This document shows positions 20,333 to 24,681 of a DNA stretch of 64,000 nucleotides, one piece after another (within the stretch, counting starts at the first letter, position 1; every line of letters starts with the position of its first letter). Under the pieces are notes generated by a model, which saw only the letters and a program-made list of their open reading frames with translations, had not been told where the DNA came from and did not search any database. Location: positions 19,576 through 83,575 of the forward strand of contig CALWHB010000002.1 of the NCBI GenBank assembly GCA_944380275.1, read 5' to 3'. Position numbers and translations under genes: made by a program. Source of the DNA: an uncultured Christensenellaceae bacterium (lineage in GTDB: Bacteria > Bacillota > Clostridia > Christensenellales > UBA3700).

Positions 20333-20746
20333 ATGGTAAATCTGATTTGCGGAAGCAAAGGCTCCGGCAAGACCAGCCGAATTATCGAAAAGGCGAACGC
20401 GGACGTAAAAACCGCGAAAGGCGACTGCATCTTCATCAACGATACCGACAGGTATATGTACGACGTCGACCGCGGCGTAAGGCTGATTGACGTAACGGAA
20501 TATCCCGTTGCAGGAGAAGAGGCATTGCTCGCGTTCATATGCGGTCTTGCTGCAAGCAGAAACGATTTGACAAACCTTTACATAGACGGTGCGTCGAGAA
20601 TCGCAGGATGCGGACCGGAAAAGATGAAGAAATTTTACGAAGAGCTGGGCAAACTTGCGGATAAACTCTCTTTGTCCGTAACGGTTACAGTCAGCGCGAC
20701 CGCAGAAGAATTACCTGATTTCTTATTGAAATACAAAATTATCTGA
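20333..20746 (+). CDS. Conserved small P-loop-like protein of Clostridia, function unknown
   Basis: N-terminal GSKGSGKT, LYIDG; SD GGAGG; 9 bp upstream of thrC. Confidence 0.8.
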   Translation: MVNLICGSKGSGKTSRIIEKANADVKTAKGDCIFINDTDRYMYDVDRGVRLIDVTEYPVAGEEALLAFICGLAASRNDLTNLYIDGASRIAGCGPEKMKKFYEELGKLADKLSLSVTVTVSATAEELPDFLLKYKII

Positions 20747-22414: not shown

Positions 22415-23614
22415 TTACTTGAGCGCGCCGGCAAGCTGTCTGCCGTATTCTTTTGCGGATTCTATGTCAGCCGCCGTGGGTACGAAACAGACTTTGAGCC
22501 CTTCGCCGACCACAGCCATTTTAAGTCCTGAAACTCTCGCTATAACATTGGGGACAGCCTCGCCGCTCCAGCCGTAAGAACCGAAGACAGCGACCGGCTT
22601 TTTGCGGCTGTTTATCGCGTCCACGCCGGCGAGCAAATCCCATACGGGCGGAACTGCGTCAGAATTGAGGGTGGGAGAGCCTATCGCGCACGCGTCGCAA
22701 GAATTGATTTTTGCGCGCATTTCAGACATATCGTTCTCGATGAGGTTGTAAGTTTCGCAAGCCGCGTCGGGGATTACTTCCTTTACGCCTTCGGCGATAG
22801 CCTCAGCGAGTTTTGCCGTGCAGCCGTATGCAGAGCAGTAGAACACTGGGATTGTCTTTACCGCGTTCTTGACAGGCTTGCTCCAGTTTTTGTAGCAGTC
22901 GAGTACGTACGGCAGCAGTCCGTTCTTTGTCAGTACGGGACCGTGGCTGGGGCATACGGTTTCAAACGGATATTTTGCAATCTTTGCGGTGCCGGCGATT
23001 ACGAAGGGCTTGAAAGGACCGAAAATGGCGTCGTAATAACCCTTGAAAGCCTCTTTGTATCCGTCGACGTTTTCCACATCCTTGTCAAAGACCTTCTCGC
23101 TGCTGTAATGAGAACCGAATACGTCGCAGCTGAAAAGCACCTTTTCTTCAGCGCAGTACGTGAACATACTGTCAGGCCAGTGCAGCAGCGGTGCGACGGT
23201 AAACGTAAGCGTTACGCCGCCAAGGTCGAGAACTTCGCCGTCCTTTACGGGGCGGGATTTAAAGGGTTCGTTTACGATGTTTTTCAGGTAGTTGAGCGCG
23301 ACCGCCGTTGCGAGAACGGTAGCGTCTGGACACAGCCTGAGCAGGTCTGCGAGTGCGCCTGAGTGGTCGGGCTCTGTATGATTCAGCACGATGTATTTTA
23401 TTTTTGCAGGGTCGGCAACTTCGCGTATGTTCGCCTCGTATTCGCCCTTGAAATCAGCGTGCGATGCCTCAATCAGAGCAACGTCGTCGCCTTTTACGAT
23501 ATAAGAGTTATAGCTGGTACCGTATTTTGTTTCCATCACTATATCGAAAACTCTGAGGTCGGGATTCTGCACTCCGACGCTGTAAATTTTGTCAGTAATT
23601 CTGTTTGCTGCCAT
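22415..23614 (-). CDS. fprA: Class A flavodiiron protein (O2/NO reductase)
   Basis: Diiron ligands NHTEPDH, HWPD, CDVFG, PSHG; flavodoxin domain SAYGCT, GSPT, FGSYGWSGE; start MAANR at 23614 with SD GGAGGAG. Confidence 0.93.
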   Translation of the reverse strand: MAANRITDKIYSVGVQNPDLRVFDIVMETKYGTSYNSYIVKGDDVALIEASHADFKGEYEANIREVADPAKIKYIVLNHTEPDHSGALADLLRLCPDATVLATAVALNYLKNIVNEPFKSRPVKDGEVLDLGGVTLTFTVAPLLHWPDSMFTYCAEEKVLFSCDVFGSHYSSEKVFDKDVENVDGYKEAFKGYYDAIFGPFKPFVIAGTAKIAKYPFETVCPSHGPVLTKNGLLPYVLDCYKNWSKPVKNAVKTIPVFYCSAYGCTAKLAEAIAEGVKEVIPDAACETYNLIENDMSEMRAKINSCDACAIGSPTLNSDAVPPVWDLLAGVDAINSRKKPVAVFGSYGWSGEAVPNVIARVSGLKMAVVGEGLKVCFVPTAADIESAKEYGRQLAGALK

Positions 23615-23654
23615 ATTGAAATCTCCTCCGTAAATTGCAGAATATTGTAGATTG

Positions 23655-23921
23655 TTAAATTCCGTGTTTAACTCTGTCCCTTTCTTCGGCGCGTTTAGCA
23701 TTGTTGAAACGGTCGAGGGTACCAACAAGATAACCCGTTATGCGGCGTATCCTTTCAAAAGGTACGTTTTCAAAAGTATATTTGAGGTCGACGTAGTCGC
23801 CGTCTACAGTAACGTCCATCTGAGAAATGTTTTTATCGGGGTATTTCTTTTTACCGTAATCGATATAAGCGTCGATTTCTTTCTGTTCAAGCTGACCGCC
23901 GTTTACGTTTACTTTTATCAT
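23655..23921 (-). CDS. Stand-alone NrdD-type glycyl-radical domain protein (88 aa)
   Basis: SD GGAGG 8 nt before ATG 23921; C-terminus VPFERIRRITGYLVGTLDRFNNAKRAEERDRVKHGI matches the class III RNR C-terminus; no Cys, no catalytic barrel. Confidence 0.85.
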   Translation of the reverse strand: MIKVNVNGGQLEQKEIDAYIDYGKKKYPDKNISQMDVTVDGDYVDLKYTFENVPFERIRRITGYLVGTLDRFNNAKRAEERDRVKHGI

Positions 23922-23975
23922 AATTTTATCCTCCGGCAAATATTTTTAAAATTCGCTTTACTTTTTATCGCATAT

Positions 23976-23984
23976 AATATAACA
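23976..23984 (-). promoter_or_regulatory. Extended -10 element of the mini-nrdD/fprA promoter
   Basis: Minus strand TGtTATATT with no good -35, consistent with activator dependence. Confidence 0.5.
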
Positions 23985-24002: not shown

Positions 24003-24020
24003 ATGTTGCAAATGCAACAT
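24003..24020. promoter_or_regulatory. Perfect palindrome, likely operator of the adjacent Crp/Fnr regulator
   Basis: ATGTTGCA-AA-TGCAACAT between divergent genes. Confidence 0.75.
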
Positions 24021-24033
24021 TTTGAGGAAAATT

Positions 24034-24681
24034 ATGGATATTTTTAAAATAAATCTTTTTGACGGGATAAGCGGCGAGGACGTAGAGAGGATGATAGTAT
24101 GTTTCGGCGCGGTTTTCAGAAGTTTCAAGACAGGTGCGACTATATACGACTATCCGGGCAGCGGCGACGACGTTGGAGTAATGCTTGAAGGTAAGGCGTC
24201 GATGATACGTACGGACGAAGACGGAGAGGTCGCGGTTATGGAACTTTATTCAGAGGGCGACATATTCGGAGAGGTGCTTGCTTTTGCCAACGAAACGGGC
24301 GACAGCGTCAAAGTTATTGCAGAGAGCGATTGCAACGTTATGTTCATCAAGTATTCGCAGATAACAAAACGCTGTGAAAGAGCATGCGAGCATCACAGCA
24401 GGCTTGTAGGGAATATGTTCGGGCTGATAGCGAGAAAGACGCTTTTGCTGAGCAGAAGAATAGAGATATTGTCAAAAAAGACCACAAGAGAAAAGCTGAT
24501 GTATTATTTTCAGACGCTTTCAAAGGATTACGGCGCGGAGTTTGAACTGCCTATGTCGGTAACACGACTTGCTGAATACGTATGCGCTGACAGGAGCGCG
24601 ATGACGAGAGAACTGTCGCGTATGCAGTCGGACGGACTCATTGAGATAAACAAGAGAAGAGTAAAGCTCAAAAAGGCATAA
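24034..24681 (+). CDS. Crp/Fnr family transcriptional regulator
   Basis: cNMP-binding fold (GDIFGE), CERACEHH motif, C-terminal HTH LAEYVCADRSAMTRELSRM; SD GAGGA, ATG 24034. Confidence 0.92.
   Translation: MDIFKINLFDGISGEDVERMIVCFGAVFRSFKTGATIYDYPGSGDDVGVMLEGKASMIRTDEDGEVAVMELYSEGDIFGEVLAFANETGDSVKVIAESDCNVMFIKYSQITKRCERACEHHSRLVGNMFGLIARKTLLLSRRIEILSKKTTREKLMYYFQTLSKDYGAEFELPMSVTRLAEYVCADRSAMTRELSRMQSDGLIEINKRRVKLKKA

Follow-up and report, generated by a model that had tools for sequence, protein, structure and literature searches.

Glycyl-radical enzymes are cleaved by O2 at the site of their radical (PMC13450708), and in the available text of two papers small proteins that act as spare parts for such cut enzymes are described for pyruvate formate-lyase (PFL) only, other enzymes of the class being treated as an open possibility (PMC13450708, 2026; PMC8683613, 2021). 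In this study we analyzed a 64,000-nucleotide (nt) stretch of DNA, hereafter the window, from an uncultured Christensenellaceae bacterium (assembly GCA_944380275.1, contig CALWHB010000002.1, positions 19,576 to 83,575 of the forward strand). A small gene at 23655..23921 on the minus strand (stop codon included), identified as an open reading frame (ORF) that belongs to a conserved family, encodes a stand-alone protein of 88 amino acids (aa; P0001) that ends like NrdD, the class III ribonucleotide reductase (RNR). Our evidence is computational throughout. It makes it rather probable that the small gene encodes an autonomous, trans-acting glycyl-radical module for NrdD1, the class III RNR of its own genome, which at this locus would act as a spare part under oxygen stress. 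With it, PFL would probably no longer be the only glycyl-radical enzyme with a known spare part. Neither an NrdD spare part nor a split class III RNR is reported in the literature searched, subscription-only papers and supplements lying outside that search; within these bounds, the statement of an earlier note on this DNA that no spare part has been demonstrated for class III RNR holds.

The closest described system is GrcA/YfiD of PFL. Both GrcA/YfiD and the protein described here are small stand-alone proteins that reproduce, in their C-terminal part, the glycyl-radical segment of a large enzyme, and both coexist with the full enzyme and its activase. The proposed logic, in which the module receives its radical from the activase and stands in for the segment that O2 cleavage removes, would be shared as well, as far as the accessible text on GrcA goes (PMC13450708, PMC8683613). 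However, the tail of the small protein is of the NrdD type (RITGY followed by the NrdD C-terminal helix) and not of the PFL type. Its N-terminal domain is confidently predicted to be folded, whereas the N-terminus of YfiD is called disordered in the passages available to us (PMC13450708). The genetic setting differs too, since the small gene occurs with NrdR boxes, or with a Crp/Fnr-family regulator and flavodiiron or rubrerythrin genes. In some genomes it even appears to be an obligate module beside a tail-less enzyme, an arrangement that the available parts of the two papers do not describe for GrcA (PMC13450708, PMC8683613).

The small gene starts with ATG at 23921-23919 and stops at 23657-23655 on the minus strand, 8 nt downstream of a Shine-Dalgarno sequence (GGAGG, 23930..23934, minus strand), and its product contains no cysteine. 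Residues 1-54 (23760..23921, minus strand) constitute an N-terminal domain with a predicted beta-alpha-beta-beta fold, and residues 55-88 (23658..23759, minus strand) the NrdD-type glycyl-radical tail. Based on the sequence and on its near-invariance in the family, Gly63 (codon 23733..23735, minus strand) within the motif RITGY (residues 60-64) is the predicted radical glycine; the corresponding loop of PFL reads RVSGY. The tail corresponds to the last 30 positions of the NrdD family profile (PF13597): the Pfam match to NRDD comprises residues 55-86 only, at profile positions 533-562 of 562 (E 2.1e-7, 30.5 bits, cut-off 26.2), and the NCBIfam NrdD models match residues 52-87 only and far under their whole-protein cut-offs (TIGR02487, 28.9 bits vs 326). 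Residues 1-54 have no Pfam or NCBIfam match. A Pfam scan at E<=10 returned NRDD and one noise match only; as no Gly_radical or PFL-type match is among them, the small protein is not a detectable homolog of GrcA. In contrast to NrdD, it lacks the ATP-cone, the catalytic alpha/beta barrel with its finger-loop cysteine and the CxxC...CxxC Zn ribbon, and shares with it the C-terminal glycyl-radical motif. An unrelated domain takes the place of the ribbon and, having no cysteine, is therefore not a Zn ribbon itself. The earlier note had described an intact 88-residue gene with a GGAGG Shine-Dalgarno sequence and its own stop, about 35 C-terminal residues copying the end of NrdD and not of PFL, and an unrelated Cys-free domain, here with a separate predicted fold, where NrdD has its Zn ribbon; all of this is borne out, the gene lying on the minus strand.

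The host genome (75 contigs, 89.8% complete) contains two full-length nrdD genes, one on contig C46 (NrdD1) with nrdG directly downstream and one on contig C16 (NrdD2). Both proteins cover the whole Pfam NRDD profile (1-562), so they have kept their own tails and the host's nrdD is not a split gene. NrdG-like genes are present on contigs C46, C41, C19 and C16. The absence of an NrdD barrel and of NrdG that had been noticed for the window extends to the entire contig on which the window lies, and no class I/II RNR (PF02867) was found in the host genome or in 9 other genomes checked. Hence, as with GrcA/YfiD, a full-length cognate enzyme and its activase coexist with the small gene in one genome. 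NrdD2 (C16; locus L002, 1141-3516, plus strand) has a peculiarity of its own, a glutaredoxin domain (PF00462, residues 715-767) fused after its own, different tail. A radical-SAM activase gene lies upstream of the NrdD2 gene, and the NrdD2 tail does not match the small protein at E<=1e-3.

Residues 55-88 of the small protein are identical to the C-terminus of NrdD1 at 34 of 34 positions. A comparison of 32 codons gives the same 32 residues, although 18 codons and 21 of 96 nt differ between the small gene and nrdD1, all of them synonymously. Such divergence rules out misassembly, recent duplication and recent gene conversion, and it shows selection that keeps both tails the same protein. The alignment with the host's full-length NrdD that the earlier note had proposed thus turned out as expected, with identity confined to the tail and perfect there. 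A comparable relation was observed across 42 genomes (34 of a first batch of 50 plus 8 from a sample of the order; the set leaves out 7 tail-less genomes of the first batch, 9 more genomes, G047, in which the tail is cut by a contig end, and all 29 genomes of a second batch). Here, tail pairs of the small protein and an NrdD1-type enzyme from the same genome share on average 29.14 of 32 residues, compared to 27.40 for pairs across genomes, and 9 pairs are identical at 32 of 32 positions although 2-23 synonymous nt differ. None of 20000 permutations reached the observed own-genome value, in a test that ignores the relatedness of the genomes and hence gives an indication and not a probability.

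A length-matched database search yielded at least 8000 matches, the best of which are 87-89 aa long and labeled either 'hypothetical protein' or 'anaerobic ribonucleoside-triphosphate reductase'; short ORFs annotated as NrdD, which had been suspected to exist, are thus indeed present in databases. An exhaustive search among 50%-identity cluster representatives returned 2133 at E<=1e-3 and 806 at E<=1e-10, and the top 150 are mostly 85-100 aa long and align end to end. Residues R60, T62, Y64, N73, K76, E79 and H86 are invariant in an alignment of 53 members and G63 is nearly so, and the N-terminal half shows a clear conservation pattern as well, with E15 and Y19 nearly invariant. The pooled ratio of nonsynonymous to synonymous substitution rates (dN/dS) is about 0.058 in the N-terminal domain and about 0.017 in the tail, as estimated from 16 independent close pairs drawn from 90 genes; these values are approximate, given a proportion of synonymous differences (pS) of about 0.65 and synonymous sites near saturation, but still far below 1. 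They replace an earlier estimate from distant pairs that was dropped as saturated or codon-biased. Members occur in Ruminococcus flavefaciens FD-1 and ATCC 19208, in other Ruminococcus and Oscillospiraceae and in bins labeled Christensenellales, Caproicibacter, Marvinbryantia and others, and 11 of 201 genomes in an even sample of the window's order contain a full-length member. The small-gene sequence of the window itself was seen on 22 contigs, and the stretch is present, in full or in part, in public metagenome runs of 11 studies on chicken and other gut samples. As judged from these comparisons, the family is large, resides in gut and rumen Clostridia and is under strong purifying selection. 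Its homologs are numerous and full length, neither sporadic nor decaying, which had been one of the checks proposed earlier.

An AlphaFold2 model based on the 53-member alignment predicts a beta-alpha-beta-beta fold for residues 3-50 with a pLDDT (predicted local distance difference test) of about 90. In the tail this value drops to 60-71, which is what one would expect of a part that packs against a partner. No fold could be assigned to the N-terminal domain by comparison: Foldseek against the PDB gave no match at E<=1e-3 (best E 0.17), the best VIA-align hit, the periplasmic domain of ToxR (Z 5.1, root-mean-square deviation 2.5 over 53 residues), falls in the range of common arrangements, and the best score of 0.76 in the ESM Atlas for residues 1-53 is a lead only. 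Many homologs (L048, L053, L073, L079, L094 and others) carry a short extension with paired cysteines (CxC or CC) after ...VKH, often ending in ...EEIA. The NrdD tails of G202, G236 and G248 bear a similar Cys-paired C-terminal extension, which the protein of the window lacks, and CC, CSC or SC are likewise common endings of tail-less NrdDs; a role in metal bridging or redox chemistry is conceivable. Two to four copies of the small gene were found in several genomes (G213, G219, G222, G232, G225, G206, G161, G260 and G268).

The most informative genomes are those in which NrdD itself ends early. A long NrdD match is present in 77 of the 79 genomes with a small gene, the two exceptions holding either the small gene alone or a fragment at a contig end, so that the co-occurrence with nrdD that had been called for is found almost throughout. 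The NrdD1-type match ends at profile position 532-541 in 11 of these 79 genomes. Ten of the short NrdDs stop a few residues past the Zn ribbon, either where the radical glycine would be or directly ahead of it; the end of one of them reads ...HERIRRITCSC, followed by the stop codon and a terminator-like hairpin. No TGY-type tail was detected near these 10 tail-less nrdD genes in any frame. The eleventh, in G264, was set aside as aberrant, as it continues into unrelated Gly/Ala/Pro-rich sequence without a clean stop. In 8 of the 10 tail-less genomes no further NrdD was detected, and the 7 of those 8 that were searched for a class I/II RNR (PF02867) yielded none; these results are no proof of absence, and most of the genomes are metagenome bins. 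nrdG adjoins the tail-less nrdD in five loci (L127, L128, L130, L132 and L171) and lies elsewhere in the genome in all five tail-less genomes without an adjacent copy, and the small gene is unlinked to nrdD in the tail-less genomes. A cultured Ruminococcus isolate is among them (L062). More than one small gene is present in several tail-less genomes, and G213, whose only NrdD is tail-less, has four small-gene matches. Nothing sets the small proteins of tail-less genomes visibly apart from other members of the family.

Where the only glycyl-radical site found for the only RNR found resides in the small protein, this protein must act in trans and in a positive manner. By comparative logic, the tail-less lineages thus show that the trans arrangement is sufficient and that the small protein would be their obligate radical subunit. 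The natural tail-less NrdDs resemble the product that is expected from O2 cleavage of NrdD at the glycine. In an order-wide scan of 201 genomes, 194 of them with a match, all but one of the best 150 of 235 matches reach position 561-562, and the sole short one is cut by a contig end. We lean, with somewhat less confidence than for the locus itself, towards a wider reading in which the family of about 88 residues is a mobile glycyl-radical cartridge. In most hosts it would be a spare part that re-arms O2-cut NrdD. By making the built-in tail dispensable, the cartridge would have allowed several lineages of Clostridia to lose it, leaving a two-subunit class III RNR of tail-less NrdD and cartridge that is activated by NrdG.

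Two other divided enzymes invite comparison. In the split class II RNR NrdJa/NrdJb of Pseudomonas aeruginosa, a C-terminal functional domain forms a separate polypeptide, according to the available part of the report (PMC9669993). There, however, the RNR belongs to another class, the domain is IscU-like with a zinc finger and not a radical site, and the two chains make up one enzyme (PMC9669993, available part), whereas the small gene is usually unlinked to nrdD and mostly found beside a complete NrdD. Closer in chemistry is a split nrdD that we observed in other genomes of the same order (G003, G127, G192, G086 and G111). Its NrdD ORF runs past the Zn ribbon into a short extension with Cys and stops there, and is followed by a separate tail ORF of about 50 aa without the N-terminal domain and then by nrdG (L021 on contig C16 of G003, L022, L025, L024, L028 and probably L030). 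This layout is common to three species of one genus, and G003, G127, G192 and G086 each have a second NrdD match, which covers the full profile, among the matches listed. As in the small gene, an NrdD-type glycyl-radical tail is encoded by a separate short ORF, but this ORF lacks the N-terminal domain, lies between the tail-less nrdD and nrdG and represents a split gene rather than an unlinked extra copy. In the host genome there is no such pair of a core without the domain and the missing piece beside it; the check for a split nrdD suggested by the earlier note was negative, both host NrdDs covering the full profile and lying on contigs other than that of the window.

At the locus itself, the small gene lies in a neighborhood of oxygen defense. 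A flavodiiron protein gene (22415..23614, minus strand; ODP-type metallo-beta-lactamase domain and flavodoxin) begins 40 nt downstream with its own Shine-Dalgarno sequence, and no terminator-like site was found between the two. Divergently oriented upstream of the small gene is a gene for a Crp/Fnr-family regulator (24034..24681, plus strand; cNMP-binding domain and HTH_Crp_2). The perfect palindrome TGTTGC-N4-GCAACA at 24004..24019, of which the genome has no other exact copy, is a candidate operator of this regulator. A candidate extended -10 element, TGnTATATT, can be read at 23976..23984 on the minus strand, and a consensus scan revealed no -35 element. From the inferred start of transcription, the center of the palindrome would be about 42 nt upstream, a spacing that corresponds to the class II activator geometry of Crp/Fnr promoters. 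Two metatranscriptomic libraries of one study provide contigs over 23528-23741 and 23786-23947 (X19) and over 23429-23699 (X18). These contigs bridge the small gene into the flavodiiron gene, with carry-over of DNA being possible, and none was found over the regulator gene or over 23016-23169.

The arrangement recurs in other genomes. We compared 90 loci, 80 from the homolog search and 10 from the order search, leaving out L012 as a near-duplicate of L010 and L016 as cut by a contig end. The palindrome precedes the small gene in 14 of them, as an exact copy in 11 and with a single mismatch in 3. These include all 12 loci that have the Crp/Fnr gene as divergent upstream neighbor (10 exact copies, 2 with a single mismatch); the palindrome is also present at L015, which has both the regulator and the flavodiiron gene, and at L069. 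In 10 of the 90 loci, the immediate downstream neighbor on the same strand is a gene for a rubredoxin-rubrerythrin fusion. Ruminococcus flavefaciens FD-1 and ATCC 19208 are examples with the Crp/Fnr gene, the small gene and rubrerythrin together (L050, L057). As read from these loci, one lineage keeps the regulator, the box and the small gene and swaps the downstream partner between two enzymes that detoxify O2 or reactive oxygen species (ROS). Residues C23, C100, C114, C118 and H121 are invariant in the regulator orthologs (9 of 9), which suggests that the regulator could be a metal- or redox-based sensor.

Taken together, tail identity, selection, co-occurrence and an intact host nrdD support the proposal of the earlier note, namely that the small protein is an autonomous glycyl-radical cofactor for NrdD. 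We envision the following mechanism. The NrdD1-type activase NrdG (C46) would abstract a hydrogen from Gly63 with the help of S-adenosylmethionine (SAM); the surrounding 34 residues are identical to the natural substrate of NrdG. The radical-bearing tail would then insert into an NrdD1 barrel that lacks its own tail and place the radical at the native site, while the folded N-terminal domain would stay outside the barrel in the region of the Zn ribbon. NrdD is cleaved by O2 at the radical glycine, and such cleavage of activated NrdD1 would yield the tail-less form. The module would be made together with the flavodiiron protein, a reducer of O2 or nitric oxide (NO), from a promoter governed by the dedicated Cys-rich Crp/Fnr regulator. 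Owing to the shared operon and this regulator, it would be supplied when oxygen is met, the signal itself being part of the proposal.

A second regulatory context is found elsewhere in the family. We scored the core of what we take to be the NrdR box consensus (CACWA-N4-TWGTG, up to one mismatch, within 250 nt upstream of the small gene), for which the only validation is that it occurs in front of nrdD genes: it precedes nrdD in 7 of 10 upstream regions checked, including that of the host nrdD1. Such a box lies upstream of the small gene in 31 of the 90 loci, at a density of 40 boxes in 22,253 nt of upstream sequence (1.80/kb) compared to 24 in the remaining 584,042 nt (0.041/kb). At 31-32 bp from the first, a weaker second box occurs more often than elsewhere (16% and 11% of cases vs 0-6% at other offsets), in agreement with the paired architecture of NrdR sites, which the available text of two papers gives as two 16-bp boxes with 15-16 bp between them (PMC13584703; PMC12051234). 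NrdR is encoded in the host genome. Regarding gene order, one locus (L048) has a full-length nrdD, the small gene and nrdG in succession, but the small gene is usually not adjacent to either. In 5 of the 90 loci (L077, L082, L088, L096 and L102), the next downstream gene on the same strand is metK, encoding S-adenosylmethionine synthetase, at gaps of 263-563 nt; SAM is the co-substrate of the activase, and the adjacency may be a coincidence within one clade.

NrdR boxes are the normal sites of the RNR repressor, and their presence is what one would expect from the main rival to the spare part, a routine trans-acting radical subunit or reservoir that serves NrdD in anaerobic growth. The NrdG-activated protein would then exchange with or supplement the tail of NrdD itself, it would have no role in oxygen damage, and its defense neighbors would be incidental. 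The tail-less genomes, in which a constitutive service is needed, fit this explanation as well, with an NrdR box in 8 of 11 (counting G264) compared to 23 of the other 79 loci, and so does the lack of stress-gene neighbors in most loci. It accounts for the NrdR data and the tail-less genomes equally well, and what separates it from the spare part is the gene context of the window alone. There, no NrdR box (up to one mismatch) is found upstream of the small gene, which instead shares a 40-nt junction with the flavodiiron gene under a dedicated Cys-rich regulator. The swap between flavodiiron protein and rubrerythrin, with regulator and box retained, points to selected co-expression with O2/ROS defense, and beside a complete NrdD1 whose tail is the same, a further copy would serve no obvious purpose unless tails get lost. 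On these grounds we regard a routine subunit as rather unlikely at this locus.

Two further explanations leave NrdD unserved. The small protein could be a decoy or regulator of the activase, a mimic of the NrdG substrate that titrates NrdG or stores or quenches radicals, thereby reducing the activation of NrdD under oxygen and limiting irreversible cleavage. Its tail is an exact copy of the NrdG substrate, and co-expression with oxygen-defense genes would also suit a protective brake. However, the small protein provides the sole glycyl-radical site found in 8 genomes beside a tail-less NrdD and an intact NrdG, where a positive action is needed. The conservation of the C-terminal helix (N73, K76, E79 and H86) also exceeds the needs of an activase substrate and matches the part that packs into the NrdD barrel, which makes a decoy improbable. 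Even less probable is service to another glycyl-radical enzyme or a non-radical function with the NrdD-like tail as a recruited structural element. The N-terminal domain has no known relative and the small gene usually does not lie beside nrdD or nrdG, as such a function would allow, but the tail is of the NrdD type with no Gly_radical or PFL-type Pfam match at E<=10 and covaries with the NrdD tail of its own genome, NrdR boxes precede the gene, and a long NrdD match accompanies it in 77 of the 79 genomes. A non-functional gene fragment or an assembly artefact, as the prevailing database labels ('hypothetical protein' or the name of the full enzyme) might imply, is excluded by the gene's own Shine-Dalgarno sequence and start codon, hundreds of diverged full-length homologs, dN/dS far below 1 in both halves, synonymous-only differences from nrdD1, and recovery of the sequence on 22 contigs and in metagenome runs of 11 studies.

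Several observations weigh against the spare part for NrdD1 that we favor. The oxygen-stress context is confined to a minority of loci (12-14 of 90), mostly in related Ruminococcus-like genomes that are not independent of each other, and the neighbors of the small gene are unrelated genes in most loci. The NrdR signal (31 of 90 loci) is equally compatible with a routine subunit and with a spare part. The covariation among tails is subject to the shared ancestry that its permutation test ignores, and the missing RNRs of the tail-less genomes to the incompleteness of metagenome bins, the host's own being 89.8% complete. Since NrdD1 keeps its own tail here, the small protein should be dispensable for basal activity. 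The installation of a radical on Gly63, the rescue of cleaved NrdD and the acceptance of the small protein by a cleaved NrdD1 that still bears a stub are all presumed. Lastly, the complex prediction for NrdD1 and the small protein provides weak support. For the co-fold with a C-terminally truncated NrdD that had been suggested in the earlier note, residues 1-747 of NrdD1 (747 being the residue before the glycine) and the small protein were both supplied as alignments, giving a score of 0.52 vs 0.00 for the best of three controls, which the tool itself rates as 'weak support'. The runs agree in at least 60% of contacts, with a partner pLDDT of at least 68. Among 80 solved complexes 58 reach the mark, compared with 2 among 110 mismatched pairs, and scores of 0.60 or below that reach it comprise 7 of the 80 solved complexes and both mismatches, counts that hold roughly here because we used our own alignments. 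As structures of full-length NrdD have been solved, this outcome may stem from likeness alone.

Oxygen destroys every glycyl-radical enzyme by a common route, and repair by a spare domain is known only for PFL. Given that class III RNR is the only source of deoxyribonucleoside triphosphates found in these strict anaerobes, its survival of oxygen bears on the air tolerance of gut and rumen Clostridia. The findings further suggest that class III RNR can be a two-component enzyme. They offer a concrete and testable candidate for an explicitly open question, comprising the small protein, its cognate enzyme, the activase and natural tail-less NrdD partners, and would correct the database labels of thousands of proteins that are called hypothetical or taken for fragments of NrdD.

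We also searched for carriage of the small gene by phages and retained no case: full-length tblastn matches were confined to two unannotated 'Bacteriophage sp.' virome fragments of 4.8-7.9 kb, and named phages in the phage collection match the small protein via their own NrdD tails only. An unannotated segment of Eggerthella phage EL753P1 (OP172808.1, 7095-7172) matches tail residues 62-87 (73% identity, E 4e-4) and is possibly a phage-borne NrdD-type tail. Elsewhere in the window, just upstream of a threonine synthase gene, a 137-aa ORF at 20333-20746 on the plus strand contains a P-loop-like GSKGSGKT motif and has no Pfam match at E<=1e-3.

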